Origin: Lingula anatina
Lineage: Eukaryota; Animalia; Brachiopoda
Length of the DNA stretch: 64,000 bases
NCBI GenBank assembly: GCA_051362555.1
Contig: CM120646.1
Location: 7,874,001 to 7,938,000, forward strand
Direction: 5' to 3'
Positions 7,284-50,512 of this stretch are shown in pieces (within the stretch, counting starts at the first letter, position 1; each line of letters begins with the position of its first letter). The notes under the pieces are model-generated. The model was not told where the DNA came from. It saw only the letters and a program-made list of their open reading frames with translations, and made no database searches. The translations under genes were made by a program, and so were the position numbers.

Positions 7284-7658
7284 ATAATAATTTTAGGTTC
7301 TGCGCCGAAGACACTGACATGGGTATCTTGACTATGGTTGTTATTTTGCAGTAATAGCTCCCCTCATCTGCCAATGTGACTGTTCCAATTGTCACCGTGA
7401 ATGATGGATCCGAGACTGTAACCGTCACGTCAGTTCTATTGGAAAAAGAGTTCTGCAGCTGATAACTCCCATCAGAAATCACTATTCCCACTATTTGGTT
7501 TGAATCGGTCGTTCCATCTTTATAGAAATATACGACCTGCATCGTCTCTCCGGGATCCACTGTGTAACTGCACACAAGGTTCACTGTTGGTGGGATGCCG
7601 TTGTCAGGATTCATGATCAACCCATTGGGAGGTAAATCAGCTAATGTTACCTCCAAGC
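7284..7658 (-). CDS. IgSF gene A, V-type Ig domain exon
   Basis: GLEVTL...LVCSY...FYKDG...LADEGSYYC...NLKLL; D-x-G-x-Y-x-C motif; AG at 7659-60, GTAAGT donor; 375 nt, phase 1-1. Confidence 0.93.
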
Positions 7659-8229
7659 CTATATTGTAAAAACAAATACCTATAAAGAATTTTATTTAAA
7701 AATCCAGGGAAATGTTTAGCAATAAACCCCCCAATTATTCAATTTGTATTTGGTGTTTATTTCAGTGGTCAGTGTCATACCAGTAGGGTATTTATAATAC
7801 ATTAACTCTTGCAATTGGTTTATATTGTAAAGTGCAAGTTCACTCATTCGGGTTACTGCTTAAACGCTGACAGGCATTTAACTCTCTCTATATATACATA
7901 TCCTTTAATATAACTGCTTAGTTCATAAAAAGTTGGCAAAGCTTAAACTGGGTTCCCATCTCTAGATCAATCTAGCATGATCGGTCCATCTCCATGGGGT
8001 TTCTCGCTTAATTGCTTTCAGCTTAAGAGGCTTAGATGTTTGGGACGCCTACTAAAGCTGCTAAACGATAGTTAGTTACCCCCTGTCGGGTTCAGTAGGC
8101 GTGACAGACATCTTAGCCGCTTAAATTAATTGCAATAAAGTGAGAATCCCCTTGGAGATAGTTCAATCCAAAGTTAGTATGATAGTCTTTGGGAATGGTC
8201 AAACGTAGGTCAAATAGTCAAACGCCTTA

Positions 8230-8819
8230 AGGCCCAGTCACAATGTCGGCGATCTGTCGGGGATTAGTTTTGGCCGGGGGTCGTCGTAGAAAATAAAGAA
8301 TCCTTGAACAATCCTAGCAATAATCCTAATAAAAGTGGAGCAGTCACATTGTCTGAGATTTTTTCAAGGATTTTAACCCGGTTTTGTCGAAAAATCGTGG
8401 GATTAGCCTCCGATCGCCTCCGATTGCATCGGAGGCGATCGGAGACGATATCTGCGAGCGTCTTTTCTTGTAATTTTTTCCCCCTGGGTATATGTGGGGG
8501 AAAAGGTAAAAGGGAAAAGGAAAAGTCTCAGATTATTCGGAGGATGCCACCGATTAATCGGAGGGCATCGTAAGTCATCGGAGATTGTGTCTGGGATGCC
8601 CAAAATGGGTGAAAAATCTTGCGAGCAATCTTAAAATTTTAAGTTCAAAGTTGGGACCGCGACGGGTGTGGCGATGTCTAAAAAATCTGCGACAACCCGC
8701 AGGCGTCCGGAGAGCGCCTCCGACGGGTGCAAAATCGTGAGATCTGTCTCAAGATTTTGTTCAAATTTCCCGGGTTTTACCCATCCCCGACGCATCGCAA
8801 CTGATTTGTGACTGGGCCT
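8230..8819. mobile_element. PIF/Harbinger-type MITE in intron 1 of gene A
   Basis: TIR AGGCCCAGTCACAA...TTGTGACTGGGCCT, TTA TSD; paralogous introns show the empty site gccttatcat. Confidence 0.85.
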
Positions 8820-9360
8820 TTATCATTCAACTATGACATCTATCTTCTATCGAGTGCGTAGTACTTCTACCATGCAGGAAGTATTTTTACAAGCCTTCTC
8901 ATTACACATGTAGCTTCATGCTGAAGAGCGTTTAAAAGATTTTGATCTTTTCTTTTATCATTGATGTAGGAAATTGTCATCATTTTGGATAAAATGACAT
9001 ATGAAATCACTTTTGCTCTTCATCTTTTGAAAAACAGCCTATCAACAAGGCGATCTCCTTGTTGTTTATACAAAGACTATGGCTGTATTCCCAGAGCTTT
9101 TAGATCGATCTATCCCCGCGGGGAGTCTCACTAGATTACTGTCAGATAATCCGGCTTAATTGTCCGTCCCGCCTACTACAAGCTGTAAGGGGGTAATTAA
9201 CTTTCGTGTCCGCCCGGCTGACAGCTATTTAGCGTGAACCCCCAGGGAGTTAGGTCGATCTAAAGTAGATCGATCTAATCTCTGGAAATGGGGTCTATGT
9301 CAACAAATCTTCAAGCTATTAAATACTTTGAAAGTACAGAACAACACGTTTAGTTCCTAC

Positions 9361-9415
9361 CTTTAGTTGGATGTGGAGTTACAAACAGCAGCACATAAAC
9401 ACACAATGTCTTCAT
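9361..9415 (-). CDS. IgSF gene A, leader exon (MKTLCVYVLLFVTPHPTK-G)
   Basis: ATG, hydrophobic core, AG|GTAGGA donor, 55 nt, phase 1 matching the V exon; repeated upstream of the other V exons. Confidence 0.88.
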
Positions 9416-9515
9416 CTTCCTCCGTTGTGTTGCCTTTAGCCGCAGGTTCTTCCTGGGTTTTTTTATTGAGAGCTAAAAATAACATACCAGTTGCTACCCG
9501 ATAATCAACAAAGTA

Positions 9516-9532
9516 CAACTAACACAATTAAC
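9516..9532 (-). promoter_or_regulatory. Conserved upstream motif CAACTAACACAATTAAC (+ strand reading), ~100 nt 5' of the leader ATG
   Basis: Copies at about 9516, 11185, 14361, 15600, 24271, 37158, 42088 and 47023. Confidence 0.55.
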
Positions 9533-9686
9533 ACGTGGTATACAGAACGTAATTCTGGAAAAATTACAACATCGGTAAATTACTACACTTAAGGGCGGAT
9601 CAATGTTATTCTGTTTTTCGAAATATGATAAAAAAAAGGGCAAATAATATTGAAACGCAATAAATAGAAAAGTAACATCCACAGTT

Positions 9687-9873: not shown

Positions 9874-10321
9874 CAGTTTCATTACACGGGTTTTTAGAAA
9901 GTCAACCCAACCATGGCTGTGAAGTACACATATATAGAGGGTAAAATGCTTTGTATTACGCTCGGTGTAACAGTAATCCAAGTCAAAGAGCCAAAATACC
10001 AAAGGAATATAACAGAACATTATTTATTATTTCAAATTATTAACTGTCTTGATTTGCCTTAAATCCAAGAGCAAATTTCCATTTTGGGGTTATTTTTCAA
10101 TTTATGTTAGTGTGAACCGAAAAATTAATCTAAGGACGGAGATCCCGTGTTTTGTGAAAAGAGATATTCCCCTCATTTGAAGAACTAAGAAGGTCAATGA
10201 CACATGTAAAATATGCTTTTATTACAAGAAAAATACACAAAATAAAATTAATGAAGAAAAACTATGGGAATTGTGTTGTTTTTGTCAAAATGTTACTAAA
10301 ATGTTAGGAATGCACGTCCCA

Positions 10322-11100
10322 TTCACTGTGTAACTACAGACCCACTGTTGGTGGGATGACGCTCTCAGGATTCATGACCAACCCACTTGGAGTTAAATTA
10401 ACTAATGTAGCCTGTTAAACTATATTATAAAAACCAATTAAATAAAAATATAAAGAATAATATTTAAAAATTCTGGTGAAGTGTTTGTCAGTATATCCCC
10501 CAATTATCAATTTGCTTTCCAAAGTGTTAATTGCAGTGTTAAGTGTCACAATGTGGTGTGATGTGATGTGATGCAATTGGTTTATATTATAAAATGCCAA
10601 TTGCCTCATTTGTTGTCGTGTCTTGTGTTGACAGGCTTTGAGCTGTAGACTATATAACTGCTTCGTTAAAAACAGTTCACAAAGTTTACACATGTACGTG
10701 CAGAAAGGTAAATATATTCATGTTATTTTATTGGCTTATCATTCAACTTTTATCGTGAGCTAAGTACCATTACAACGCGGGAAGTAGTATACGATCCTTC
10801 TCCTTAATAACATGTAGCATCATGATTATTAAGAGAGTTATAAAGGTTTTTTTTGTATTGCTGGTGCAAAATTATCATCAGTTTGGTTAATGATGGCGTA
10901 TGCAGTCTTTTTTGTTCTTCATCGTTTGAAAAACTGCTTCACTTGAGAGTTCTATGGAGGAGATCCTCTTTTTGTTTATACAGAGATTAAGTCGAAAATC
11001 TTCAAGGGATTAAATTATTTTAAAACACACAACGACACGTTTAGTTTCTACCTTCAGTTGGATAGAATTACAAGGAGCAGCACGTCTAAATACCTAATAC
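10322..11100 (-). pseudogene. Relic IgSF gene: degenerate leader (~11052-11100, ATG deleted), intron 1 and 5' fragment of V (10322-10415)
   Basis: Homology to the gene A leader, intron 1 and V start; truncated just after the CSYTV codons. Confidence 0.75.
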
Positions 11101-12279: not shown

Positions 12280-13928
12280 TATACAACCTGAAAAGAGAGA
12301 TGAGGCAACAAGCTGGCAATTCTGAAAGCTTGTAATTGGCTAATCACTTTTGAAATCAATTCTTCATTTGAACAAAGCAATATATACCATTTGTGAACGT
12401 TTGTAAGAAAATACAGCTAATCTAAGGCGGTTCTTTACAGTGATATCTTAACAACACACAATATTCCCCTTAGTTGCAGTCAAGTAAGTAAGCATTTAAT
12501 TATGCAAACTGACAGACATCGAAATGTTAGTTAAACAATACCAATACTTTTAGTTTTTGATTAACGAAAGTACACGCTGTAATTTTAAAAATTAAAGTAC
12601 AAATATTCACATTTTACTGCGTTATATAAAATACCCTTGTAAAGCTTCGTGTTTCAAGTTTCATACTCCAAAGATCAGATAAGGTCGACAGAATGTTATA
12701 TATGTATATCATTAAAGTAATTCAACAGTGTAGATTGTGAATCTTTATATTTACATCTATTTACATCTATATTTGGAAGTTATTATTTGCAAATGATCTG
12801 CAAAAACTGCCATATTTGCCAAATGTACGCATTATCTTTCATTCTACGCAATTGGATGATTGCCTATTATTACGGTGTTACAATTTTGCTAATGGCATAT
12901 CAATATATGATACACTCATCATGAGCACTGAGTTTGCTAAACTGGACCTGGGTATCATCATCAAGTGTAATGTAATTATAGGCAACAGAACCATCAGCTG
13001 CAGTCACCGGCAAGATGTTCCCTGCAAGTTCAGTATATGGTTCAGCTAAACGTTTATCCCGATTATCTTGTCGAAGATTATTGTACCCAGTCGTCGGCAC
13101 AGCATAATCATAAACCACATAACCGCCACTAAAGTCAGGGGATGGATCTATTGCGGGGGGTCTACATGTAGGAATTCGGTCGAAAACAGTTCTGCCGTTG
13201 TTTCCGTTTGCTGTCGCATTTTTTGTAATATGATGATGTTCAGATGTTTGTGATTTGAGTTTCCTGGACAACGACCGATTGCGGAATACAAGGTATCCAT
13301 TCATGCATAAAAGACACGTTGCTAGCAAGGTCACAATGATCGAAAATGTCCTCCAAGCAGCACCTGTAATACAACACCTATGCATGTATTCATTCCCGTT
13401 TTACATACTTTCAATTTTGTTAACTAATGTATAGTGTATACATCGATAGCAACAAATTGAATACAAATTTTCAACCAAAATGATAAAAAACAGTATTTTT
13501 ATCATCAGACAAATGAGGTGCAATAAAAAAGAAAAAACAGATTAACCGGCACAGTTTGAGCCACGTTATAGAAAGGATAGACGGGAGGAAATAAATTATC
13601 TGTATTCTGAATACCCCTTTCATCAGTCTATTAAACAGTGTACAGGTGTTGTACTTGAACACAATGCTGATGTTTAATAAAGAAAATTCAGCATAAAATA
13701 TGGACAATGTTATCATACAACTTAACAAGTTTGCCTATTCTGTCTGATCTGAAAAGTAATTACGGAATCAGTTGCACTTGTACATGTTGTGAAAAATATA
13801 CCTTTCCTGGCTTGCGGGATATATTCACCACTCAGTGTTTAATTAGAGCAATGCCGTCAATCCTTTTTGTTATGTTAGTCATCTCAACCTACAGTTATAG
13901 AACATTTATCTCACAGCAAAACACCCCG

Positions 13929-13972
<44 letters not shown>

Positions 13973-14151
13973 GCTTTTGACACGTTTGTGGTACTTTAAT
14001 GTTTTTTATGAAAAATTGAATTTAAGGACTACCGACCTGAGTAGATACGAACAGTAATTGAGGAGTTGCAGTTCCTTTGAAATCCATATTCGTGTAATGT
14101 AGCATTCTGCGCGACCTCTCCGGGATCCACTGTGTAGCTGAACATAAGGCC
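12280..14151. repeat. Segmental duplicate of ~38838-41171 (type-2 TM/tail exon plus V relic)
   Basis: Near-identical by eye; ~450 bp present only in the 39 kb copy. Confidence 0.85.
12900..13363 (-). CDS. Orphan type-2 transmembrane + tyrosine-motif cytoplasmic tail exon (open, 154 codons)
   Basis: tacAG acceptor, phase 1; TM FSIIVTLLATCLLCMNGYLVF; tail TGYNNL-x12-YTEL...VAYNYI; upstream ectodomain exons are broken. Confidence 0.7.
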
Positions 14152-14269
14152 GACAAATCTTCAAACCATTAAATTATTTTAAAGGACAGAAAGGCACATT
14201 TAGTTCCCACCATCAGATGAATATGGAGTTACAAAAAGCAACACATAAATACACCACGTCCGCCTGCAT
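14037..14269 (-). pseudogene. Degenerate V fragment (14037-14151) fused by deletion to a frameshifted leader (14211-14269, +4 nt)
   Basis: Homology to 41057-41171 and to the 55-nt leaders. Confidence 0.75.
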
Positions 14270-14756
14270 CTTCCTGCGTGTTGCCCCTAGCCTCGGGTAC
14301 TTTTTTTTTGGGAGTTAAATATAACATCTCCGTTGCTGCCTGATAATCAACAAAGTAGATCCTAATACAATTAACCTGTGGTATACAGAACGTTATGCTA
14401 GAAAAATTACCACATCGGTTAATTTCTGTACTTAGGGGCTGATCAATATTATTCTGTTTTCTGAAATATGATTAAGAAAAGGCAAATAATATTGAAACAC
14501 AATAAATAGAAAAAAGCATAGTATTCACAATTTCATGAGGCGGGTTTTCAGGAAGTCAATCCAACCCTGGCTGTGGAGTACACGTTTAATATAGATAATT
14601 ATTCTTTCTATTACAACGGGGATGAAATGTCATTTTCAGTTTCTTAATTTTCTCTGTTACCTGGGCGCATATCAGCTAAACTCTAACGGTTAATAGGGGC
14701 TGTGCAAGAGTTCTACAAAGAGGTGCGACTGATTTTATTTCAGACACCCCTTGTAG

Positions 14757-15481
14757 GTGTAACTACACACAAGGTTTAATGGTTGTGGGGTACCTCCCTC
14801 AGGGTTCATGACGTAACCATTTGGAAGGCAAGCCAGCTAATGTTACTTCTTACCCCAAACAAGGGTAACAGGAAAAGGAAAGAAACGAGATATAAATGCA
14901 TTCTTGGGCAGTGTGTAGCCTGTGACGATTGACAAAAATCACGGTGTATCATTCCCAATTGTGCCTAGAGTCTTCATTTTGTTCTTAAAATGCGTTTTCT
15001 TTGCGTTTGTGTTCTTGTTTGAACAGAGGAAGGTATTGATCTGATATCACTATAGTTTAGAAACTTGATCAATGTCAGACCAGTAAAATGAGGTCATGTC
15101 TGTTTATGTTATTTTCTGCAATGACCTCTATCTTAACTCAATCGATTGCTAAGCATTTATACCAATAAGTAATTATGGGACCCCTCCCTGCCAAAATGCA
15201 GCTTTTTTTTTATTCATAACTCTTACAGGGTAATTAGAAAACGAGTCATTAAGTTCAATTTTTGTTTCGATGAAGAATGTACCATTCTGTTGATACATCA
15301 AGTCGTGGGATTCGAGGGGGACGCATCCCCCAGGTATCTATTGTCTCGGACTAGGACAAGCTGAACTATTTTAGTATGGCTAACATACTTTGAAGCACCG
15401 TAAAGAGCATCACTTTTACTTCCTACCTTTAGTTGAATATGGAGCTGCACAGAGCAGCACATAAAGACACCACTCCTTCAT
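14757..15481 (-). pseudogene. Gene-C-like relic: intact leader 15427-15481 (MKEWCLYVLLCAAPYSTK-G), intron 1, and 5' V fragment with lost acceptor
   Basis: Homologous to 36300-37066; V is frameshifted and truncated at the CSYT codons. Confidence 0.78.
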
Positions 15482-16775: not shown

Positions 16776-18520
16776 TGATAGAAGTAGCAGAGCCCGTGAA
16801 TGAAAAGCACTTCCGGTCGCACAGCAGTCGCCAGAGGACGCCCAAACAACGGTCATCTGTCTAGCATAATATCGTAGAAAGATCGTAGAATGGTCGCCAC
16901 TGATCGCTGATGAAGGTACAGTAATCACACCCTGGTTGCTCAATGGATGCTCAAATATCGCAATGGACGTTGTAGGCTGCACAGTGGACTCACATGGGAG
17001 TTGAAAGTCATTCAGGTCGCTGTTAATTGGACATGAAATCCAGCCTTGGTCGTTGAAAACACACATAAGGGTAACAGACACATTTACAAGGACACGGTTT
17101 TCTTGCATTGGCGACCATTGAGCGTCCTGCAGGCTACATCTTTGGTCGTAGAGAGTCGCAGAAAGCATGCATTCAGTTATGGGGGCTTTAGTGATACACT
17201 GTATTTTGTCGTGCTATTTCTACACTGTAAAGCATATATCGATTTTATCAATGGACATTTTTTATGTCATTTTGAGTCTGGAGTTCATTGTCGCACAAAG
17301 TGACTGCCAAATAATTGCATGGACGTGGATTTTATCAAAAGGGTTTTATTTAACAACAAATACGCACATAAAAACTTGTGACGCACAAATTGTAATGAAG
17401 AAATTCAAGAAGTTTTCAGTGTTGTTTACTTTTAATTTCATATTATTAACCTTATTATTTACGGATTTTTAATCATATAGAACAATTAAAGGGATTAATA
17501 AAATCGGTTTTAATATAATTTATTCCAATGTTAAAATTTTAATTTAATTTAATTTTGATTTAAAAATCACAGAACAACTTTATAATACATGTATGCCTAT
17601 ACGTAAAATAAAATAACCCATGTAACAGCCAGATAAAAACATCTGTTAATATATAAACGAACTGTTTCTTGGCATCCATAAAAACAAACCAATCTAGCTT
17701 TTAGGTGAAAAATGCTTATGTATTAATTTATCACATACACCGTTCGACATGTATATTCCTCACTGCAATACTTACTTACAATTGATTAAGCTAGCGACAA
17801 TTCCTATAAAACCCATAAGTTTAGGCAACAGGTCGAAGACGCTAAAAGCAATAAATGATGATTTATATATCTAGGAATAAATATATTTAAGCAAAGTAAT
17901 AAGCAACACATTGACACAGTGAAAGCAAATTCTTTGAATCGTCATACGTAATGTGAAAATGCAACGCAGTCTTGGAAAGTAACAAAAGTATTACAGCCAA
18001 TACCAACAAGTTTTCAACAATTAATTGATTTTATTAATGCCTTAAATCACAGATGTGCTCCCTTAACAGTTTAGTCGTAGCTTGCGACACCAAACTAGCA
18101 TGTTATCATAATTCAATACTGTACAGTGTGAAAATACTTAAAATCGGAATCAATTACTATAAAATGTTTTGGATGCGTCATATACTTGTATGCAAGAAGC
18201 ATAACACTTTGATGATTGTATGACATATGCATGTAAATTTAAATGTCTTCAAGTCATTTTGTTATACATTGAACATTGTGGATCTTTTTAATTACGAACC
18301 AAGTACATGTTGAGAGGTTCCTGACTGCATGTATAACGAAACATCTTCAACTATTGTACTGCCACAAAATGTGGAGTTCAAAATCGTTAAATCTGCAATT
18401 TTCATGATAATTTCCTATTATTTAAGGGTTTAATATTTTTACCCTTAGGTATATTATACAATACAATCACTCATCTGGGCCACCTTTGAATTGACTAGTC
18501 TTGAGGTCATCCTTGGAAAA

Positions 18521-18897
18521 TTAAATGTAATTATAGTCACCAATACCATTTGTGGCGGTAGACGGCAATAGGTTCTCTCCAAGTTCCATGTATTGCCCAT
18601 CTGAACGGTTATCCCGCCGAAGTTCTTCGTAACTATTCGCCAATGCAGTATCGTCATAGTCAACATGAACCTCATCAAAACCAGAGGAATGATCTGTCGC
18701 GCGATTCATAGATACTTGGACATTGAATGGACTGTTAACAGTGTTTGTAATAACACTGCCATGTTGCTGTTCAGAAGCTTGTGATTTGAGTCTCCTGGAC
18801 AATGACCGAGTGCGGAATACAAGGTATGCAATTATGCAAAAAAGGCACATTGCTAACAACGATACCACAATGATTGATACTGTTCCCCCATCAATGC
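18521..18897 (-). CDS. IgSF gene B, type-1 TM + cytoplasmic tail exon (ITAM-like YEEL-x9-YMEL, terminal YNYI)
   Basis: tttcAG acceptor, phase 1; TM VSIIVVSLLAMCLFCIIAYLVF then basic RTRSLSRRLK; TAA at 18521. Confidence 0.88.
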
Positions 18898-19402
18898 CTG
18901 AAATACAAAAGATATAATTTAAATGGGTTGCCAAGTATAATCCTTTCTGATTTTTGTTAACTGAAACATAATATACCCATTGGTACGACCACACTAAAAT
19001 ATTCACCCGGAATGTCTAATGATCTACAACGTTCACATTAATTTATAAGGATGGTACAGAAGCATAGTTAGTCGGATGAGAGTGTCCCAGTACCAAGAAG
19101 AGAGGGTGATGGATACAGATTATCGAGTAGAAGTTATCTGACTTTTTTCAACTGAAACATAATATACACATTGGTAGCTCAACTGTAAAATATCAACCCG
19201 GAATGTCTTATGATGTGCCACGTTCACGTTTATGATACCGAAGCATGGTTAACCGTATGAGAGTGTCCCAGTACAAAGAGGATTATCAAGTAGAAGTTCA
19301 CGGTCGGTTACCAAAGCCCCCACCCCGCCCACCCCTTCAACCAACAGGTACTGAGTACTGTACACCTCAGTTTGTGTTCCGCAGTGCTCTTGGTTTAATT
19401 AC

Positions 19403-19423
19403 ATGTTGTTGTAGTTGGAGACA
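19403..19423 (-). CDS. IgSF gene B, 21-nt stalk micro-exon (VSPTTTT)
   Basis: tttgcAG/GTAATT, frame-preserving, conserved at 28884-28904. Confidence 0.55.
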
Positions 19424-19711
19424 CTGCAAATGTGATATAAGAGAAATACAAAACAGACTATAAATGAATAAATAAATATGTAACCAAGTATATTCCCTGA
19501 AAAATAATAAGCGTCACCTAAACTGACTAAGATTGTTTGTATTACAACTGGAAAGGTTGTGGTTGAATGTAAACCTGTATGATCTTCCAATTGGCTATGC
19601 CAGATAAAGCGTGAGAATTGACTTAAACCAACGCGTACCTAATGGTTGGGTTAAAAAAAATTTATCATATTTTGAAGCAAACGAAAACAATTTACTCCGA
19701 ACTGCACCTAC

Positions 19712-19747
19712 CTGCTGTAGATACGGCAACGCTGCTAGTTGAGAGAG
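19712..19747 (-). CDS. IgSF gene B, stalk micro-exon (ALSTSSVAVSTA)
   Basis: ttttcAG/GTAGGT, 36 nt, phase 1-1. Confidence 0.78.
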
Positions 19748-20423
19748 CTGAAAAAACATAAAGAGGCACTTATTATTCAATCGACTACTTTGGGCTTGTC
19801 GATTCCCTTGCAAAGACAAATAATGCAGAAATTTGGAGCAATAGAATAAAACGAGAACTAGTGAGTGTTGGAGTATATTTTTGGTATCAGAACTGTCATA
19901 GATCAATGTGACTATATCATTTTAAATATTGCAAACTTCTAAGAGTTACCAGGCTTTTTGGTCCACTTTTTGAAGGATATTTTACCTTAAAAACGTAATG
20001 TTTAAGGCACTCTATTCGGCGTTTACCTGCCAAATTGACTTTTGAAAATGACAATTTTAACTTACAAACAAATCATTGACGGCAATTGGAATCGATTTGT
20101 TTCTAAATAACTTCTTGTATATTTCAAAAATAACAACCGACGTCAGGCACTTCTATTTTAGGGAGTTTTTATTATAGTTCTTAACGTCTGTATTAAACAT
20201 TGGAAATAATTCATAAGTGTACATTTTATCTAAAATATATCTCTACGGCCCAAGTAGATGTGCATATAATAAATGTATGGATGTGCAGTCCATGTAAATA
20301 GGTCAAACAGGATAAGGTATAAGAAATGAATGGGGGACTTAACACGTCCATTCTTTTTTATCAGGACAAATAGTTTTAAAATAAGCAATTAAGAAAAATA
20401 AATCCAACATAAATTGTACCTAC

Positions 20424-20462
20424 CTGCATTAGTGGATTTCACAGTAGTGGTAGTTGAAGGAG
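20424..20462 (-). CDS. IgSF gene B, stalk micro-exon (APSTTTTVKSTNA)
   Basis: ttttAG/GTAGGT, 39 nt, phase 1-1. Confidence 0.8.
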
Positions 20463-20734
20463 CTAAAAAGGGAATTCAGTCACTTCTAAAGATAAGAAAT
20501 AATAAATGTACCTCATGCACATCCACAAGCCAAGAAGAATGATTTAGAAAAGCAGTAAAATGAGCACGCACAGGTATAGTGTTGAAATATGTTTTACAGA
20601 GTATGTTACAAATAAAGATATAAGCTCTTTGCGGTAAAGTTTAGGTTTTTCCAGCTCTTTATTTTTTGTTCTCAAGTGAAATGAAATGATCAAACTACCA
20701 ATCCGAGTAAAATACACGAACCAAATATACATAC

Positions 20735-21046
20735 CAGCACTCCCCGGCACTATAACACTTGTTTTGGTTTGACTTGTAAGAGAATCGTGCAGTAGTTGGC
20801 AAAAAACTTCAACTGGATCTGCTTGGGTTGCCATCACTTCTACTTCACTTTCCACCAGAAAGGTGTCTCCCTGGGGTGTCACCGTGTTCGAGGTTTCATT
20901 CATCTTGACCTGCATCTGGTTAGAACTTTGCATTTTAAACCACTTTATCTCAGGTGCTGGTCTTCCGCCATCAGAGGAACAAGTTACCCGGTAGGTATCT
21001 GTGGCGACTTGAGGTCCTCTTGTAATCTGGGGCGGGTTCGGCCGAT
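20735..21046 (-). CDS. IgSF gene B, C2-set Ig domain exon
   Basis: 312 nt, AG/GTATGT, CSSDGGRPAPEIKW...FCQLLH. Confidence 0.92.
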
Positions 21047-21223
21047 CTGCAAATCATAAATTATAACATAAAAGAAAATTATCGTAAAGCTCAACAATTT
21101 GTGAAACTACCCCATGTGAACGTTTTAAGTTCTATTTTTTGGTTTGAGGAATATTATTTAGTAAAAGACAAAGCAATTACAAAAGTTTTTATTAGCATGA
21201 ATATTGCACCGACTTTTACTTAC

Positions 21224-21598
21224 ACAGTAATTTGAGGGCCTGGACTGGAGTCGTAAAAACGGGATTATTGAATGGGGCGGAAACTTTGCAGTAAAAATTA
21301 CCCTCATCTGCCAGAGTGACTGTAACAATTGTTAAAGTGAATGATGGATCAGAGACTGTAACCGTCACGTCAGATCTCGTATTATATTCGTTCTGCTTCA
21401 TGGCATATCCAGTAGAAACTTCTATTCCTGCTATTTGGTTTGCAGTGCCCGTTCCATCTTTGTAGAATACGACGTACTGCGCTGTCTCTCCGGGATCCAC
21501 TGTGTAACTGCACACAAGGTTTAACGGTTGTGGGTTGCCGCTCTCAGGATTCATGACGTACCCATGGGTCGGCAAATCAGCTAATGTTACCTCTAAAC
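21224..21598 (-). CDS. IgSF gene B, V-type Ig domain exon
   Basis: 375 nt, AG/GTAAGT, LVCSY...ADEGNFYC. Confidence 0.93.
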
Positions 21599-21944
21599 CT
21601 ATGGTATAAGCACATAGAATTACTATACTCATCAAAAACCCCAGGAAACGTCTAGCAAGAAATCTCTCAATTATCCAATTTGTATCCATGTATCTGAGAG
21701 TGTTCATTTCAGTGGTGAGTGTCACACCAGTATTTGAGGTGTATCAATCATTGCAGTCGGATTAAGATGGAAAGTTGCAAGTTAACCTATTGTGTTGGTG
21801 CATTGTGTTGACAGGCGTTGGACTGTAGTCAATAATACTGTATACCTGCATAATTGATAATTAGTTAGCAAAATTTACACAAATAGGCGCAGAAAGGTAA
21901 AAGGTCATGTTATTCTTCTTGCCTTATCATACCACTATGGCATA

Positions 21945-29228: not shown

Positions 29229-29257
29229 CTGAAAAAAACATAAAGAGGCACTTATTA

Positions 29258-34598: not shown

Positions 34599-34640
34599 CT
34601 GCATGATTAGTTGATTTCATAGTAGTGGTAGTTGAAGGAG
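34599..34640 (-). CDS. IgSF gene C, stalk micro-exon (APSTTTTMKSTNHA)
   Basis: 42 nt, AG/GTAGGT. Confidence 0.8.
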
Positions 34641-35222: not shown

Positions 35223-36029
35223 CTACAAAGTAGTACAATTATAAGTTACATATGAAATCATATCTTTGCCACTAAACCAAACCAAATGAAACCATATGGT
35301 TTCAAAAACATAGATATAACAAATGTTTTCGTCGAATACATTCAGAATATGATATTTAAGGAAGTATGTTCTGCTTTCTGTTTGTGCTACAGTATATATA
35401 ACCCTTTGTTGTTTCCATCAATAATCATTTGAATATTAATGTAATTGTTTGTGCAAAAATAATGCCCTACACATTACTACTTTATTTGGTGGACTTTTAC
35501 GAACCGGAGTCACGGATAAACAGAGTAAGTTTACGACCAAAATATTTTAGAAGTGCAGTTGTAAAGTTTTTCTTTGGCTGACCAAGTGATTAATTAAGTT
35601 TATCCTTTGTCATGTCGACTCTCTTTGAATCATATAAGAAAATAGTCGAAATTGTTAATATGCGTTATAGGGAACATACGCTTGCTTCATACATGTATGT
35701 AACTTAAACATAATACAACAGACGGTGCGCATGAAACATTCAAGAAGTATGAGAGTCATGCCGACATTTCGTACGAGTCTTTAAGATGACCCATTCATAC
35801 AATTACAGCTATATATGATTACTGGTGAAATGAAAGTGATAACACCTAGAAGATGGCGCACAACCTCTAATGGTAAACGCTATATTATTTCCATATTTAA
35901 GGTTTTGGTCCATGCCTACTAAATTAGTAATGATTTCCTCCCTTATTTCTTCTAAATCATCCTTAACTTTCAATACATCCTCTCTATGGACAGAAATCGA
36001 ACATGCTAATACTTCAGTGATTTACTTAC

Positions 36030-36404
36030 AGAGTAAACTAAGGATTTGCTCGTCAGTTGTCACGGTGGCTACATTGAATTCAGTGTTAACACGACATCTA
36101 TAGCTCCCCTCATCTGCCATGGTGACTCCACCGATTGTTAACGTGAATGAAGGATCAGAGCCTGAAGCCGTCACATCAGCTCTATTGGTATAGCTGTTGA
36201 ATTTCCTGGGAGTTCCATCAGATACCTGTATAGCTACTATTTGGTTTGCTGTGTCAGTTCCATCTCTGAAAAAAACCACATACGACGCCGTCTCTCCGGG
36301 ATCCACTGTGTAACTGCACATAAGGTTAAGTGGTTGTGGGTTGCCGCCCTCAGGATTCATGACGTATCCATTGACAGGCAAACCAGCTAATGTTACTTCT
36401 AACC
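36030..36404 (-). CDS. IgSF gene C, V-type Ig domain exon
   Basis: 375 nt, AG/GTAAGT, LMCSY...ADEGSYRC. Confidence 0.93.
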
Positions 36405-37011
36405 CTAAAAAAGGATATACATCTTTCATTTCAATGGCAAATGTAGCAAATGGCAATCCACCTATATTATCAAAAGAGAATAGAGATATTTATGTTATCG
36501 TGGGAAGCATTCAAGCCTGTGACGATTGATAAAAATGAACAAAATTCTGTGTATCAATCCTAGCAATTGGTTTGAATCTTAAGATGCTAGTTATTTGCAT
36601 TTGTTTTCTTGTTTGAACGGAGACAGGTATTGGATTGTTATAGTAAGCTTAGGTACTTTATCAAGGTTGGGCCAGTAAAATGAGGTCATGTCTGTTTATC
36701 CTTATTTCTGCAACATCCATCTTAATTCAATCGACTGCTAAGCATTTATACCAGGAAGTAATGGTGGGACCCGTCCCAGCCAAGATGAAGCTTTTTTAGT
36801 TACTTTATACCCCTTGCAGGGTAATTATCAAAAGATTTATTATGTTCATTTTTTGTTTTGATGAGGAAAATACCATTCTGTTGATAAATCGAGTAGGGGA
36901 GTTTGAGGAGGACGCATACCCCGGTATCTATGACCAAGGATAAGCTGAAATAATTTTTAGATGACTCATATACTTTGAAGCAGCGTACATTGCAACACGT
37001 TTACTTCCTAC

Positions 37012-37066
37012 CTTTAGTTGTATATGGAGCTACACAGATCAGCACATAAAGACACCACGTCTTCAT
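37012..37066 (-). CDS. IgSF gene C, leader exon (MKTWCLYVLICVAPYTTK-G)
   Basis: 55 nt, phase 1, AG|GTAGGA donor. Confidence 0.88.
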
Positions 37067-39921: not shown

Positions 39922-40945
39922 TCAATATATGATACACTCATCATGAGCACTGAGTTGGCTAAACTGGACCTGGGTATCATCATTAATTGTAATGTAATTA
40001 TAGGCAACATAACCATCAGCTGCAGTCACCGGCAAGATATTCCCTGCAAGTTCAGTATATGGTTCAGCTAAACGTTTATCCCGATTATCTCGGCGAAGAT
40101 TATTGTACCCAGTCGTCGGCACAGCATAATCATAAACCACATAACCGCCACTAAAGTCAGGGGATGGATCTACTGCGGGGGTCTAGGGATTCGGTCGAAA
40201 ACAGTTCTGCCGTTGTTTCCGTTTGCTGTCGCATTTTTTGTAATATGATGATGTTCAGATGTTTGTGATTTGAGTTTCCTGGACAACGACCGATTGCAGA
40301 ATACAAGGTATCCATTCATGCATAAAAGACACGTTGCTAGCAAGGTCACAATGATCGAAAATGTCCTCCAAGCAGCACCTGTAATACAACACATATGCAG
40401 GTATTCATTCCCGTTTTACGTACTTTCAATTTTGTTAACTAATGTAAAGTGTATACATTGACAGCAACACATTACACATAAATTTTCAACCAGAATGATA
40501 AAAACAGTATTTTTATCATCAGACAAATGAGGTGCAATAAAAAAAGAAAGATTGATTAACCGGCACGGTGTGAGCCACATTATAGAAAGGATAGAAGGGA
40601 GGAAATAAATTATCTGTATTCTGAATACCCCCTTCTTCAGTCTATTAAACAGTGTACAGGCGTTGTACTTGAACACAATGCTTATGTTTAATAAAGAAAA
40701 TTAAGCATAAAATATGGACAATGTTATCATACAACTTAACAAGTTTGCGTATTCTGTCTGATCTGACGACAAGTAATTACTGATTCAGTTGCACTTGTAC
40801 ATGTTGTGAAAAATATACCTTTCCTGGCTTGCGGGATATATTCACCACTCAGTGTTTGATAAGAGCAATGCCATCAATCCTTTTTGATATGTTAGTCATC
40901 TCAACCTACAGTTATAGAACATTTATCTCACTGCAAAACACCCCG

Positions 40946-40992
<47 letters not shown>

Positions 40993-41932
40993 GCTTTTGA
41001 CACATTTGTGGTACTTTTATGTTTTTTATGCAAAATTGAATTTAAGGACTACCGACCTGAGTAGATACGAACAGTAATTGAGGAGTTGCAGTTCCTTTGA
41101 AATCCATATTCGTGTAATGTAGCATTCTGTGCGACCTCTCCGGGATCCACTGTGTAACTGAACATAAGGCCCATTGTTGATAAAATGCCACATTCAGGAT
41201 CCATGAAAGACCAGTTGGAAGGAAAACCAACCAAAGTAACTTCCAAACCTGTAGTATATGAAAAAGGAATGTCGTAATATAATAAAAACTTGGTAAGCGA
41301 TTTGCAACATACTCTTTTCATCGAATAAGGCAATTCACAATTTCCCATTGCACTCAAAAAAAAGACTGTGATATCTGTGGCGTACTGTATTTTGAAGTTC
41401 CAGCTACTTGTGTAGTCCACTGATAGGTTTTCTTGTTCTTTCTTGCGAGGGCTAGCAATGAACTATGGATTTCAAACAAACTAGTCGAGGAAGTTTGCAC
41501 AGGCTGTTACACAAAAGTGCTAGTTTATCTTGCCATAACCACAATATCAAACTAGTATCAATCACCAGTTCAGCTTTTATACGTACCAGGAAGTGATTAC
41601 GTGATCCCTTCCTATCAAGACGAAAAGTTCCTGAGCAAGTAGCATCATACCTTAAAGTTACTAAAAGAGATATTTTGTTCGCTCATTGTGTTTGATCTAA
41701 AATTTGCCATCTTGGTTAAGACAGGGATAACTTTGGCCTGTCATCTTAGCTATACACATTTAGTACAAGTGTAATTTGGGGTGGCGACCTCCCTTTAGTT
41801 TAGGCACAGTTTAAGCTGATTTTTATTAAGACAAATTACGTACTTTGAAGTACATTAGAACTCATTCACTCCCTACCTTCAATAATATTTGGAGTTACAA
41901 AGAGCAGCACAAAAAAAAAAACACGTCTTCAT
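39922..41932 (-). pseudogene. Probable pseudogene D: leader 41877-41932 (T11 frameshift), degenerate V 41057-41248, type-2 TM/tail exon from 40378 (frameshift, stop at 40170); no C exon
   Basis: First V Cys changed to Phe; 7 nt missing in the tail relative to 12900-13363. Confidence 0.72.
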
Positions 41933-44238: not shown

Positions 44239-44240
44239 TA

Positions 44241-46100: not shown

Positions 46101-46437
46101 ATTTGTTCTGCGCCAAAGTCGTAACCACGGGATAACTGAATGGGACTGAAACCTGACACATATTGTTCCCCTAATCTGCCAATGTTACTTTGCCTATTGT
46201 TACCGTGAATGATGGATCAGAGACTAACCATCAAGTCAGTTCTGGCGGCAAATCTTCCATCAGAAACCTGTGTGACTGCTATTTGGTTTTTATCGTCCGT
46301 TTCTCCTTTGAAAAAGTCACGTACTGCGCCAGGATCCACTGTTTAATTGCACTCAAGGTCCACTGTTGGTGTGATGCCGCTATCAGGATTCATGATGTAC
46401 CCATTGAATGGTATAGCATCTAAGGTAACTTCCAAAC
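46101..46437 (-). pseudogene. Near full-length V pseudo-exon, leader deleted
   Basis: GLEVTLDAIPFNGYIMNPDSGITPTVDLECN*...VTLAD*GNNMCQVSVPFSYPVVTTLAQN; stops and deletions; upstream motif retained at ~47023. Confidence 0.8.
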
Positions 46438-48563
46438 CTGCATTAACAGTATAATAGGGTATTGTAATATTTAAGTTCGGGAAGCATTTTAGTAGTATAC
46501 ACCTTGACTAAATCAGACGGTAATTTTTTCCATAACCTTCTTAAGATGGGCGTGATACCTGTGGCGGAGTGTATGATAAAAATCCAGTTAATCAACTGAA
46601 AGGCTTTCTTGTTGGAAGGACGCAGGAATTGAATTCTGGAGAACAAACTGATTAATTCAGAAGGTTTAATTCAGAAAAGTTGGTACAGAACGGTAAAATT
46701 AGGCCATGCTAGCTAATCTAATAAATCCACTTTTACATTAAATCATTTTCAATAGAGAGGAAGTTTTTGTACCAGGAAGTAAATATATTGTCACTCCCTA
46801 CCAAAATCAAGCGTTTTGCAAGCCGACAGAACCACTTCTCATGGTTATTAATAATAAGTTTGCCTTATGTGTTTAGTGTAGAACACATCACCCTAATTTA
46901 AAAATTAAATCAGGAATAAGGTTGCGTTGGCCTTCGATTTTCAACACAAGTAAGGTATGGGGAGGCTGTATTCATATTGTACAGTCGCCAATGTTTCTCG
47001 ATTAACAAAAAGATATTTATCACAACTAACACAACTGGCGGTGTAGTTAGTTGGTAAAGGCAATTTCGATATCAAAACACATCTTAGGATTTATATATGC
47101 TATTTATTCCTTAAGCCATTCTTTTAAATATGTTAAGAAAGCGCAAATAGTATTGCAACTTATCACCATACGAAAATAAAGGATATGTGCAATTTCATTT
47201 TTAAATGGTTTGCTAGTACCGAACATAATATATAATTTTTTTCTAAATTAAACAATAACAATAAACATGCTCCTTTCAAAGGGTTTTAGACAAAACACTA
47301 CCTTTTTTCCATTTTGCAATTACCGTACAGTAAAATAAAGTATCTAAATGAAGACACATTTTTTTTGTCTTTCCGACAGTCACCTATTACCAATTTCTCA
47401 ATTTCACAGATTGTCTAAAGTATTGCCTTCCGAAATAAATGTCAAATAATTGCATGGGGGCATAAGTCATTCTTACAAAATTGGCTTTATTCAACAACAA
47501 ATGTTTATACATACATTTGGTAACACATAAAGTCTTATGTTGAAAAAACAGTAATTTCCTTGTCTTACATTTAATTTTAAATCCTTCATCTTCACATGTT
47601 GATTATATATTTCATATGTGCATCAAACTGTCACATCCATGTTTGCTATATCTATTCCTAATCAAAATAATATACCTTCAAATGTTACATCTAAATAAAG
47701 CCCTTGGTAAAAATATAAAGTAGCATTCGTGAAAATATACCAATTTAACGTTTGGTAAAAAAAATCATGCTAATATTTTATCCTTTGCATACACGGTTCA
47801 TTCTTTATTTACACTTAATACAGCTAGCGACAATATCTAAACAAAAAGAACAAGGAAGCAAGCTGACAATTACGAAAGATTTCTCTAAAAACTAGTATCT
47901 TTAAAAGGCAATCCGTTCATTAGTCAAAGCAATACAAGGACATTTCTCAACTTTGTTATAAAAAGCAACAAATCTAAGATAGGTTCCTATTCACAGCAAC
48001 ATCGGACAATGCAGTCACTATGAAAAAAAAATGTCCCTTCATCTCAAATGCATCGCACTCCATGGAATATAAAAACTGAGAGAGTGCTTGTTTTAGATTC
48101 CAACAAGCCGTAATTGCAAGCAGTGACATCTGGTGTCCTGATATCCTTTAGAGTATTCATCCATTCCTATTTTCAATGGTTATCTATTATGTCAATATGA
48201 CCTGCAATAGAAAATAGGTTATAAAGGTCGGTATGTGATTAATTAAAAAGATAGATGTTGATTCATTAATTATAATGTGATACTGTAACAGTCATATCTC
48301 AAACTCAACAAGTAGTCCGAAAATCTGTGCTAGTTTTCATATAAAATTAAATAAATTGTGATAAAATTATATTTTAAAATATATTCTATATGGTAACAAA
48401 ACACTTAAATTCTATTCAATTAACCCTTTCTTTAAGTAATTTTTTTTTTGGGGGGGGGGGGACTTGTTTTATTTGCGAATGACTTATGATGGTGATGAAA
48501 AAAGGATGTTTCCCGTTTCCCTATTCATATGAATCCTTACCTTAACCGTTTGTTTAAATCCCC

Positions 48564-48601
48564 TCACAGTAAAATCTTCATCAACGCCAATGCCGCAAGT
48601 G
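48564..48601 (-). CDS. IgSF gene E, terminal hydrophobic exon (ALAALALMKILL*), GPI-anchor signal
   Basis: ttgttgtAG acceptor, phase 1; AG|GTAAGG donor 23 nt after the stop, and a likely 3'UTR acceptor at ~48203. Confidence 0.7.
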
Positions 48602-49034
48602 CTACAACAAAAATGCAAAGGTAGTTGATGTTTAGGATTAACAGCGGTCTGATAGTAATTTTAGTGATAAGATAAGCCTATTTTCCTAATGTTCTTCATG
48701 ATCAATGGCTTATTTTAAGTTGGTATTTTAATTGCGTTTTGAAATAAACAAAGTAACTGCCTGGAAATCTGGAAGCTACCGTAAACCCTAAGAAGATCAA
48801 GGAATTTCCTGGGCGTCACATTACCAAGGCAAGATTCATAGTTGGTGGATCGAAACTTTATTAGAATCATGTCATTCATTGATAATTCTCTGTGTAAAGA
48901 ACTTTCATGAGATCATAAGAAACCTCGTTCGTAATACTCTGACGTTTGCTTCATTTAACCAGAAAGAGAGAGACTCAGAAAGACAGAGAGAAACAGAAAG
49001 AGGGGAAGATGCTGGGTGAGGAAATCCATCCTAC

Positions 49035-49121
49035 CTATAATACTTGGTCGAACTATTTCACAACTTGAAATATATCCGGTCGTCGTAGTTGGCGCCTGTG
49101 TGGAAGTGGTGCTAGTAGAGA
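49035..49121 (-). CDS. IgSF gene E, stalk exon (VSTSTTSTQAPTTTTGYISSCEIVRPSII)
   Basis: 87 nt, AG/GTAGGA, phase 1-1. Confidence 0.75.
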
Positions 49122-49350
49122 CTTAAATACAGAGAAGCAATACACTTTGATTAAGTGACATTGAGTCTAGAACATTGTCTGACACACGTTTCCGGAAAGT
49201 GCTTTACATACGACACTTTATATTAATATTAATTTTCGGTGTAACTTTTACAAATCCACTTTAGTAAATATATTTCACATAATCGCCAAGACTCGTCAAA
49301 GATGATAAGATATATTATTTTCAGTTATAGAGGATTACTTTTATACTTAC

Positions 49351-49659
49351 CAATTGTTGGGGGCAGCTGTTGTTCTCTACTCATAGGGCTACTTAGAGCT
49401 GGATGTGTCGCTCTACAGATGACTGTCACTGGCTCCTCGTTTGTTGCATTTCGTTCCAGCGTGCTACTGGCGATAAACGTATCCCCGCTTTCTGTGTTGG
49501 TTTGCGGGTTAGCGGCGTTAACTTCGACTTCTGATCCGGCAGCATCTCTTACATACCAAGTAAGCGTCGGTGCGGGTCTTCCCCCGGTTGACTGACACTC
49601 CACTTGATATCTGTTTGGTGCCACTTCACTTTGGGACACTTGGGGAGGTTGTGGCTCAG
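49351..49659 (-). CDS. IgSF gene E, C2-set Ig domain exon (divergent paralog)
   Basis: AEPQPPQV...ECQSTGGRPAPTLTWY...ICRATHPAL; 309 nt, AG/GTAAGT. Confidence 0.9.
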
Positions 49660-50137
49660 CTTAAAGTAAAAAAGAAACATTTTTAAGCGGTGCAAAATAG
49701 TGAGAGAAAGGTAGACGAGGAAGTATTGAAATATGATTAATAACTTTTTGTTACGTTTCATATTTATTTATTTATTGCAAAACCGACAAATCTGAATAAA
49801 TACTTAATTCAATTTTAAAATTATAAATAAGAATACAACAAGTGAAAGGGCGAAAAGAAATAAGAACAAAAATAAATATAAAATATCTGATAACAACAAT
49901 ACAACAGTGATGATAGTGTACAATGAAAGAAAAATGTAAGGTGTCATAAAAAAGTGAAAGTAAACATGGAGCGTGACATTTTAAAACTGTTTCTCTCAAT
50001 CAAAAAATAGTCAAAAATTTTACACTCGGACAAGTATTCAAAACTGGTGCATTTGTTCAAATATATTTTATTTCAAATAATTGTGCATTAATGTTAACTA
50101 TAGCAGAAGTGTAATGCATTCATCAATAGCCACTTAC

Positions 50138-50512
50138 CATACACCATAAGGTTCTGTGGCGATGACGTCACAGTATTCTGTTGGAAGTTTAGGACAACTT
50201 TACAGGTATAATTTCCTTCGTCAGAATACTGCAGAGAGGCTATTCTGAGAGTATATTGTGGGTCATTGGCATTAACTTCGACATCGGATCTACCCTGGTA
50301 ACTGTTCTGTTTCACAGAAGCTCCATCTGCTACTTTAACTACTGCTATTTGATGAGCAGTGTCGGCACCATCTTTGTAAAATGTCACATATTCTGCAGGC
50401 TGCGTGTCGGAGCCTAGGTCGTAACTACATACAAGTTCAGCCGTTGGAGCCGCAGCGGCTTGGTTCATAATGTAACCATTGGGATTCACTCCAGACAAAG
50501 TCACTGTCAAAC
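50138..50512 (-). CDS. IgSF gene E, V-type Ig domain exon (divergent paralog)
   Basis: 375 nt, AG/GTAAGT, LVCSY...SDEGNYTC. Confidence 0.92.

Follow-up and report, generated by a model that had tools for sequence, protein, structure and literature searches.

A mosaic cluster of leader-V-C2-stalk immunoglobulin-type genes in the brachiopod Lingula anatina

Both vertebrates and Hydractinia have diversified clusters of V-domain receptors that combine ITAM tails with domain shuffling, and the CEACAM family mixes signalling and GPI forms. In the Hydractinia Alr family, the ITAM consensus is Yxx[I/L]x6-9Yxx[L/I], and Alr12A and Alr12B are 64% identical in domain 1 and >90% identical in the remainder (bioRxiv 10.1101/2022.03.04.482883). 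In primate CEACAMs, gene conversion shuffles the N-domains, its breakpoints falling at the boundary between V and C (PMC8860441), and the GFCC' face is the binding site (PMC9525683). Oyster CgIgIT2 is described in a review as an IgSF transmembrane receptor with a tyrosine-based motif that takes part in microbial recognition (PMC11999971).

A tandem gene cluster and its relics

We examined a 64,000-nt window of Lingula anatina DNA (GCA_051362555.1, contig CM120646.1, 7,874,001-7,938,000 of the forward strand). Ig-type genes A, B, C, D and E lie in tandem, all on the minus strand. Splice-site models give open frames for part of A and for B, C and D. Judged from its sequence, the cluster appears to be a brachiopod case of a CEACAM- or Alr-like shuffled IgSF receptor family, and its products are predicted cell-surface receptors. 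The intact genes, all on the minus strand, comprise the following features.

9361..9415, minus: gene A leader exon, predicted signal peptide (open frame, splice sites)
7284..7658, minus: gene A V-set exon, 375 nt (splice sites, translation; Pfam V-set E 2.5e-9)
6251..6562, minus: gene A C2-type exon, 312 nt (splice sites, translation)
5866-5825, 2927-2886, 630-589, minus: gene A S/T-rich stalk exons (open frame, splice sites, match to the P0005 stalk)
18521..24162, minus: gene B, 397 aa model (open frame, splice sites; Pfam V-set and C2-set_2)
24162-24108, 21598-21224, 21046-20735, minus: gene B leader, V and C exons
20462-20424, 19747-19712, 18897-18521, minus: gene B stalk exons (first two) and TM + tail exon
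27977..37066, minus: gene C, 406 aa model (RefSeq counterparts P0008, P0007)
37066-37012, 36404-36030, 35222-34911, minus: gene C leader, V and C exons
34640-34599, 29228-29193, 28377-27977, minus: gene C stalk exons (first two) and TM + tail exon
48564..56073, minus: gene D, 295 aa (RNA joints, model; RefSeq P0085, P0009)
56073-55995, 50512-50138, 49659-49351, 49121-49035, minus: gene D leader, V, C and stalk exons
48601-48564, minus: gene D short hydrophobic end, putatively GPI-signal-like
63282..63593, minus: gene E C2-type exon
near 62918 and near 61379-61200, minus: gene E stalk and possible TM exon

The terminal exon of gene A falls outside the window, past its low end, and the V exon of gene E past its high end. 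Pfam V-set is above cut-off in 4/4 V exons, and C2-set_2 is found in both C exons scanned (B, E 5.6e-10; D, E 3.4e-9). The V domains carry the V-set hallmarks, namely the B-F disulfide, C' and C'' strands and the D-x-G-x-Y-x-C motif, with C, DEG and C invariant. The canonical C-strand Trp is Phe in 10/10 aligned V domains, a tolerated deviation that is already known. The close relatives of the cluster proteins are all Lingula anatina proteins, and protein comparisons found no full-length V relatives outside Lingula. The RefSeq names of these genes are automatic only (mucin-5AC, CD80-like, cell adhesion molecule 2-like). A description of the family was not found in the literature searched, which misses most subscription papers; a 2018 survey of Lingula immune genes may list them.

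An earlier reading made from the sequence alone had noted that the four intact V exons are each 375 nt long. This is confirmed, with AG/GT ends in 4/4, but the equal lengths follow from duplication of a phase-1 exon and are evidence of nothing further; aligning the V exon of D with the others takes a single insertion and a single deletion. Each V type is a stable paralogue identity. Window V domains differ from their RefSeq counterparts by 2-5 residues in the few haplotypes compared (gene C against P0008, 4/124; gene A against P0005, 5/110 in V and 5/103 in C). The FG loops of A and C are identical to those of their counterparts, and that of D is identical to one of two.

Gene D is spliced and expressed, as RNA joints link V to C, C to stalk and stalk to the end, with a loose end at the leader (runs X13-X15). 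Among its exonic read differences (99 found, 40 listed, 32 classified), V has 8 nonsynonymous and 6 synonymous codons and C 6 and 9, which is no clear difference; several of those listed are segregating V changes, from few haplotypes. For B and C, no V-C joint occurs among the reads listed over 17600-37500, a repeat-dominated set. Reads on their exons carry many mismatches and a leader resembling P0004, and likely come from paralogues or distant haplotypes. Splicing of one leader to alternative V exons was considered and rejected: the foreign leader is of the P0004 type, absent from the window, and D has its own leader. At the motif level, the tails of B and C contain an ITAM-like YEEL-x9-YMEL. 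The end of gene D may instead be a GPI-like anchor with no signalling tail.

The cluster also contains relics and broken units.

7014..7088, minus: 3' V relic (F-FG-G, STIPSDPAIT) within the V-C intron of gene A
10321..10420, minus: 5' V fragment, with a degenerate leader near 11100
12900..15481, minus: broken unit(s); leaders at 15481 and about 14262, V fragments 14870-14757 and 14149-14066
39925..41250, minus: broken unit; truncated V 41250-about 41086, frameshifted TM/tail exon 40415-39925
46105..46438, minus: V pseudo-exon with stops and deletions (SVPFSYPVVT)

In 12900..15481 the TM/tail frame is open at 13400-12900 and encodes YNNL-x12-YTEL; this region shares a 95% identical block with 39493-41171. 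A leader relic near 41930 goes with the broken unit at 39925..41250. Three of about seven relic breakpoints lie within 25 nt of a CACAGTG stretch, which by a rough estimate, rather than a formal test, is compatible with chance.

Mosaic ancestry of the V and C domains

The sequence-only reading had contrasted hypervariable V domains with nearly fixed C domains, chiefly from genes B and C. Its counts are right: 42/124 whole codons differ in V and 8/103 in C (Fisher p 1.8e-6), its denominators of 125 and 104 taking in the split codon. As a general claim, fixity of C fails. C identity is 79.6% for A/B and 75.7% for A/C, 86-88% for gene E against B or C, and 36-40% for gene D against the others. 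In gene D, where V identities are 39-44%, V has not diverged further than C (B/D Fisher p 0.28). Over the 78 pairs formed by 13 non-D V-C units from the window and RefSeq, V identity is below C identity in 62, and B/C ranks 5th by size of the V-C gap. Within A-type units V is 81.6% and C 84.6% identical (36 pairs), and within C-type units V is 86.8% and C 82.5% identical (3 pairs). B/C is an extreme pair, and among units of one V type the two domains vary to about the same degree.

The origin of the B/C contrast is visible outside the coding sequence. A gene B block starting at the C exon (17752..21066, minus strand) is common with gene C, matching 27209-29257 at 95.4% and 33914-35244 at 85.9%. 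Nucleotide identity between B and C is 73.3% in V and 91.3% in C, then 90.0, 90.9 and 96.4% in the following introns, 95.7% in the TM exon and 98.6% over 700 nt past the stop. The V-C introns (177 and 807 nt) gave no alignment by global alignment. Constraint on the C protein sequence cannot preserve introns. The V tree and the C tree of the 13 units are mutually incompatible (AU p 1.9e-5 and 8.4e-9), although 10 of these units were modelled automatically by RefSeq, and some of the models span several units and may be chimeras. In RefSeq P0006 an A-type V is followed by a C that is 89% like that of gene E and by the tail of gene E. The identity gradient and the tree conflict place a break at the V/C boundary, with mosaicism at the level of domains. 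Because of this conflict and of the recent 3' block, the cluster genes are mosaics, and the B/C contrast mostly reflects a recent common 3' block on older V exons, not a frozen C domain.

At a finer scale, a polymorphic-site run test on 9 pairs gave no convincing sign of a conversion tract (best p 0.035). A BC-loop stretch of 31-38 nt is identical in A, B and C (permutation p 0.0004-0.004). In codons for the same residue, silent differences between B and C amount to 15/33 on the V front face (GFCC'C''), 9/47 in the rest of V and 14/88 in the C exon (p 0.014). The excess is clear for B/C alone (A/B 5/28 vs 7/46, p 0.76; A/C p 0.16), and a column-wise test of silent divergence on the front face gave p 0.096. 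For B/C it fits the 'peak of divergence' predicted for sites at which selection opposes conversion (PMC3924837).

Variable sites and selection on V

V sites were mapped on the AlphaFold model of P0004, with strands A-G including C' and C''. The earlier reading had placed the differences on one ligand-binding face. The location holds: 44/64 front-face sites vary vs 19/60 other sites (p 6e-5), with a front/back partition drawn after the variable sites were seen. Outward residues vary at 8/8 positions of strands C and F and at 2/10 of strands B, D and E, outward and inward being read off residue alternation on predicted strands rather than solvent accessibility. Within nine A-type V domains the front-face excess is not significant (p 0.25). 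The description 'CDR-like loops' fits in part. All ten peptides quoted for these loops and relics are found, STIPSDPAIT at 7070 in the V-C intron of A, outside the span given. Variation affects not only the C'C''/C'' and FG regions but also strands C, F and G, whereas the BC loop, equivalent to CDR1, varies at 0/6 sites in A, B and C. Altogether 8/16 sites in CDR-equivalent loops (BC, C'C'', FG) are variable vs 55/108 others.

We lean, by a small measure, towards a shuffled and homogenised germline leader-V-C2-stalk IgSF family in which selection keeps V front faces different for separate partners. Germline genes in tandem would encode cell-surface receptors; shuffling and homogenisation of their domains is likely, perhaps through unequal crossing-over or gene conversion. 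Selection likely holds the GFCC'C'' front faces of the V types apart; this face would be the binding surface, with a different partner per V type. The V front-face differences and the likely V swaps onto common stems would probably give each receptor its own partner. B and C could signal via tyrosine phosphorylation of the YxxL-x9-YxxL tail, and D, which has no tail and may be GPI-anchored, could act as a decoy or in adhesion. A role in immunity or self-recognition would fit.

The sequence-only reading had proposed diversifying selection. In its classic form this would be recurrent positive selection (omega>1) on front-face codons, of the kind a host-pathogen arms race produces. Codon models were our own implementation with naive empirical Bayes, run on the three V exons close enough for it (A, B, C). 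Omega is 0.68 in V vs 0.27 in C (p 0.005). Plain site models favour omega>1 in V (M1a/M2a 2dl 10.17, p 0.006; M7/M8 p 0.003; M8a/M8 p 0.0014), with a class of omega 3.2 on 32% of sites, and nothing in C. The uniform-age null reaches 10.17 in 0/102 simulations, the five FG-loop codons have pN 0.48 vs pS 0.10, and M8a/M8 stays significant with D added (p 0.013). Against this, M1a/M2a with D added gives p 0.14, and the signal disappears when the model has gamma rate variation (p 0.69), allows double/triple changes (p 0.66), sets codon frequencies equal (p 0.07) or gives the front face an older class (p 0.56). Across all models that permit variable rates, changes of two or three nucleotides or a second age class, p is 0.56-0.99, although richer models have little power on three sequences. 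Double/triple changes are documented to give M2a/M8 false positives (PMC6332903). Nulls with omega<=1 and older front-face segments reach 10.17 in 8/102 and 16/154 simulations, and nulls of the same type pass the nominal 5% line in 18/102 and 54/154. Front-face omega is 0.70 once the front-face neutral rate is freed. Positive selection on V is plausible, and the arms-race account as a whole seems rather improbable to us.

An account with no selection for difference is unlikely too. It holds that V types are older than the homogenised 3' halves, the exposed front face drifting because it is only weakly constrained, whereas constraint or conversion acts on the back face and BC loop. The best simple fits have a neutral class and none >1, and omega is <1 across the whole domain in all close pairs (0.48-0.63). 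The many relic V and TM exons speak for high turnover, gene D is as divergent in C as in V with no clear contrast between the two in read differences, and old ancestry combined with relaxed constraint at exposed residues would fit as well. Yet this account leaves unexplained why older unconverted segments should coincide with one structural face, and why the exposed residues all differ on the front sheet but hardly vary on the back sheet. Silent divergence argues both ways. In B/C, dN/dS is below 1 with dS raised in V (0.56 vs 0.31 in C), the pattern expected if V were simply older; in A/B, dS is equal in V and C (0.478 vs 0.480), yet V has double the dN of C, which counts against drift. The cluster is a clear example of how mosaic ancestry can inflate both a V-vs-C contrast and a plain M2a/M8 result.

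Function and comparison with known systems

On function, an axis separate from selection, the genes may form an adhesion or wiring code of nectin-like paralogue pairs, homophilic or heterophilic, rather than an immune sensor; we regard this as possible but doubtful. The closest folds are nectins, the best Foldseek matches being nectin-4, nectin-2, BTN2A1 and B7-H6 (E 1e-12 to 1e-10, TM to target about 0.7). Sequence matches include nectin-4, nectin-2, SYG-1, Irre, JAM and CADM4, the few differences from RefSeq counterparts suit a stable code, and D lacks a signalling tail. A Lingula-only lineage, birth-and-death relics and ITAM-like tails point the other way, being typical of immune-type families. 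We tentatively entertain, as a less probable extension, a brachiopod-specific recognition complex independent of Alr and CEACAM, in which V cassettes with selected, distinct front faces would be swapped between activating ITAM, tyrosine-free and GPI-like stems as a lophotrochozoan paired-receptor or self-recognition system. A somatically rearranging antigen-receptor-like (Ig/TCR) locus with true CDRs, suggested by a CACAGTG heptamer in the conserved BC-loop stretch of A, B and C and by the three relic ends within about 25 nt of it, has next to no chance, as it is contradicted by gene structure (every V comes with a leader and a C of its own, the V exon includes the G strand, there are no J segments and D splices V directly to C), the heptamer encodes Y-T-V with no nonamer at 12 or 23 nt after it by inspection, relics retain CAC instead of ending ahead of it, and three hypervariable CDR loops are absent.

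The shuffled IgSF receptor family that we favour can be set against several described ones. With nectin, butyrophilin and B7 ectodomains it shares the two-domain V-C2 fold and Pfam V-set + C2-set_2, but at 15-22% identity, without B30.2 and with Phe for the C-strand Trp. Oyster CgIgIT2 is lophotrochozoan like Lingula, but has five Ig domains and no shuffled V-C2 tandem family (PMC11999971).

Like Hydractinia Alr, the cluster combines clustered invertebrate IgSF genes, an N-terminal V-set, ITAM-bearing tails and exon shuffling. Lingula is solitary. Sequence homology to Alr was not found, and the Lingula genes differ in having V, one C2 and an S/T stalk, canonical cysteines and no I-set/Fn3-like region. 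The extreme allelic polymorphism of Alr is not seen in the few Lingula counterparts compared. The YEEL-x9-YMEL of B and C fits the Alr ITAM consensus (bioRxiv 10.1101/2022.03.04.482883), and the divergence pattern of Alr12A/B is that of B/C.

The top PDB sequence match is CEA (E 2e-12), which reflects generic Ig repeats, not orthology. The likeness to primate CEACAMs lies in tandem IgV-IgC receptors, breaks at the V/C boundary, and signalling plus putative GPI-like forms. In CEACAMs conversion homogenises N-domains, and both positive selection and bacterial ligands have been demonstrated (PMC8860441); in Lingula it is the 3' half that is homogenised, and omega>1 is not robust. With four V types and three tail kinds, the Lingula cluster is a compact testable set, and a brachiopod case would extend the shuffled V-domain receptor design to another animal branch.

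Organisation of the gene array

Small genes stand in tandem on the minus strand of the window and share one plan. Each has a leader, a V exon and a C exon, then between one and three short stalk exons rich in S/T, then a terminal exon. The 375-nt length noticed in the sequence-only reading is common to all four intact V exons, and all have AG/GT ends.

7658-7284, minus strand, V exon of gene A, 375 nt, AG/GT ends
21598-21224, minus strand, V exon of gene B, 375 nt, AG/GT ends
36404-36030, minus strand, V exon of gene C, 375 nt, AG/GT ends
50512-50138, minus strand, V exon of gene D, 375 nt, AG/GT ends

Pfam identifies V-set in all four and C2-set_2 in both C exons scanned. The C exon is 312 nt long in A, B, C and E and 309 nt in D. 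The models of B (397 aa), C (406 aa) and D (295 aa) have open frames and normal splice sites, as does the portion of A inside the window. B and C end with a predicted transmembrane segment followed by a tail with YEEL-x9-YMEL, a sequence matching the ITAM consensus given in a study of the Hydractinia Alr family (bioRxiv 10.1101/2022.03.04.482883). Gene D terminates in a short hydrophobic stretch and is tail-less; its leader and its V-C, C-stalk and stalk-end joints are seen in three RNA read runs (X13-X15). Gene E has two possible ends. The first (62918-62790) reads through into a hydrophobic stretch, as in the RefSeq protein P0006; in the window it lies one frame shift off, at a run of T. The second (61379-61200) is a splice to a TM exon whose short tail has no tyrosine motifs. 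All 10 aligned V domains have phenylalanine in place of the canonical C-strand tryptophan, and also an unusually long A'-B segment before or after the A strand.

Close protein relatives (5, 7 and 6 matches in searches of 5.8 billion proteins) all belong to Lingula anatina. The V domain of B has 79 matches among 1.84 billion representatives; only four, all from Lingula, span the whole domain, the others being short and generic Ig. Near-identical RefSeq counterparts exist for A (P0005, V differing at 5/110 residues), C (P0008, 4/124, and P0007) and D (P0085 and P0009, 2/124 and 4/124). The RefSeq models P0001, P0002 and P0003 contain several V-C-stalk units and are either real read-through receptors or chimeras. 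In P0002, a D-type V is fused directly to a C-type V, and the leader is identical to an orphan leader at 15481.

Broken V exons, leaders and tail exons are found in the spaces separating the intact genes. At 13400-12900, an orphan TM/tail frame that is still open carries YNNL-x12-YTEL and VAYNYI, its V and C exons being gone; its copy at 40415-39925 is frameshifted. A second, differing F-FG-G segment with an intact GT donor (7088-7014), 200 nt behind the V exon of A, looks like what a displaced V exon would leave of its end. An internally repeated element is present in inverted copies (80-95%) at 42653-43049 and 45022-45742, on either side of about 2 kb, an arrangement that looks like a mobile-element insertion. 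High-copy repeats, covered by reads and contigs at great depth, occupy 24900-27100, between B and C.

Divergence and mosaic ancestry of V and C exons

The sequence-only reading had contrasted hypervariable V domains with nearly fixed C domains. Its B/C contrast was reproduced (42/124 V and 8/103 C residues differ, p 1.8e-6), and the peptides it quoted are all present. C is not nearly fixed across the array: its identity falls to 80% for A/B, 76% for A/C and 36-40% against D, where V identity is 39-44%. Four V types emerge when ten V-C units from RefSeq proteins are added to those of the window. Between types, V is far more diverged than C (55 vs 75% identity for A/C-type, 68 vs 85% for B/C-type). 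Within types this is not so (V 81.6 vs C 84.6% in 36 A-type pairs, 86.8 vs 82.5% in 3 C-type pairs). V identity is below C identity in 62 of the 78 non-D pairs, B/C being the fifth most extreme. The original observation is real, but was partly over-read.

Nucleotide identity between B and C rises from 5' to 3': 73% in V, an unalignable V-C intron, 91% in C, 90-96% in the next introns, 96% in the TM exon and 98.6% past the stop. Because these introns match as well as the C exon, the 3' half was recently shared by descent. Maximum-likelihood trees of V and C for 13 units, 10 of them automatic RefSeq models and some multi-unit, reject one another (AU p 1.9e-5 and 8.4e-9). We infer that these genes probably underwent unequal crossing-over or conversion, the breakpoints lying close to the V-C intron. 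Inside the exons, testing for runs of polymorphic sites revealed no convincing conversion tract (best p 0.035 among 9 pairs). A BC-loop stretch of 31-38 nt shows no difference among A, B and C (permutation p 0.0004-0.004); strong constraint on the protein has a share in this identity.

This BC-loop stretch (region 21492-21514, with equivalents at 7558, 36304, 41148, 14128 and 10324, minus strand) encodes C-S-Y-T-V-D-P-G-E-T and is mostly retained in relics. It contains a CACAGTG heptamer without nonamer, and three relics begin or end within about 25 nt of it.

Front-face variation and possible selection

Variable sites were mapped on the AlphaFold model of P0004, a RefSeq protein 86% identical to the V domain of C (mean pLDDT 74.7; mostly 77-95 over the Ig domains, with an early loop at 66). 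Its best structural matches are nectin-4, nectin-2, butyrophilins and B7-H6. As the sequence-only reading had proposed, sites variable among A, B and C gather on one predicted face: 44/64 on strands C, C', C'', F, G and their loops vs 19/60 elsewhere (p 6e-5), with the partition set after candidate sites had been seen. By element, the model gives BC 0/6, C'' 3/3, FG 5/5, C 6/8, F 7/9 and G 8/12. Predicted outward residues are variable at 8/8 positions in strands C and F vs 2/10 in B, D and E (p 0.001). The term "CDR-like" proved loose, the three modelled CDR-equivalent loops showing no excess (8/16 vs 55/108). The modelled pattern is thus suggestive of nectin/CEACAM-type front-face binding, unlike antibody loops. 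Among the nine A-type V domains, variable sites show no significant preference for this face (p 0.25).

By the Nei-Gojobori method, dN/dS lies at 0.48-0.63 for V and 0.11-0.33 for C; omega estimated in a joint codon model is 0.68 and 0.27, respectively (p 0.005). Among the 32 exonic read differences of gene D (from 40 listed of 99), V has 8 nonsynonymous and 6 silent codons, and C 6 and 9.

We lean towards shuffled receptors whose V-type differences are protected by selection against homogenisation. Recombination would reshuffle V types and stems and make 3' halves uniform, while selection likely guards V-type differences, so that silent and amino-acid divergence would peak on the binding face. 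Divergence peaks under conversion are described for opsins (PMC3924837). At same-residue codons, B and C differ silently at 15/33 on the front face, against 9/47 elsewhere in V and 14/88 in the C exon; no such rise was seen for A/B. Each gene may yield a surface receptor binding through the front face of V, with C2 and a glycosylated stalk holding that domain outwards. In B and C, signalling would pass through the ITAM-like tail; D may be a form that lacks a tail and is possibly anchored by GPI. The paralogues may instead make up an adhesion code, a tentative reading but a serious competitor to a role in immunity or self-recognition.

Recurrent omega>1 on V is a less likely but plausible reading. 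In our own implementation of the codon models, plain tests give V a class of omega about 3.2 (M1a/M2a p 0.006, M7/M8 p 0.003, M8a/M8 p 0.0014) and C none; 0/102 uniform-age simulations attain the observed statistic. With D added, p becomes 0.14, 0.03 and 0.013. Support is lost when rates may vary from codon to codon (p 0.69), when double/triple changes are allowed (p 0.66; 0.97 with both) or once the front face is given a second, older age class (p 0.56), these richer models being weak with three usable sequences. Omega<=1 nulls with the older class attain the statistic in 8/102 and 16/154 simulations. M2a/M8 are sensitive to multi-nucleotide changes, according to PMC6332903.

Drift plus old ancestry also seems less likely. 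Raised dS in V with dN/dS below 1, named in the sequence-only reading as a sign of older V ancestry, is seen for B/C (dS 0.56 in V, 0.31 in C) and not for A/B, where dS is equal (0.478, 0.480) and dN is 0.28 vs 0.13. The way the genes are built rules out a rearranging receptor.

Comparison with known systems

The Lingula family appears undescribed in the literature searched, which did not take in a 2018 survey said to cover Lingula immune genes. Hydractinia Alr genes show the same divergence pattern as B/C and have ITAM tails: Alr12A/B are >90% identical except in domain 1 (64%; bioRxiv 10.1101/2022.03.04.482883). In primate CEACAMs the V domains have been shuffled too, the breakpoints falling at the V/C boundary (PMC8860441). 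The Lingula family has no homology to either past the Ig fold; it probably works like both and is a member of neither.
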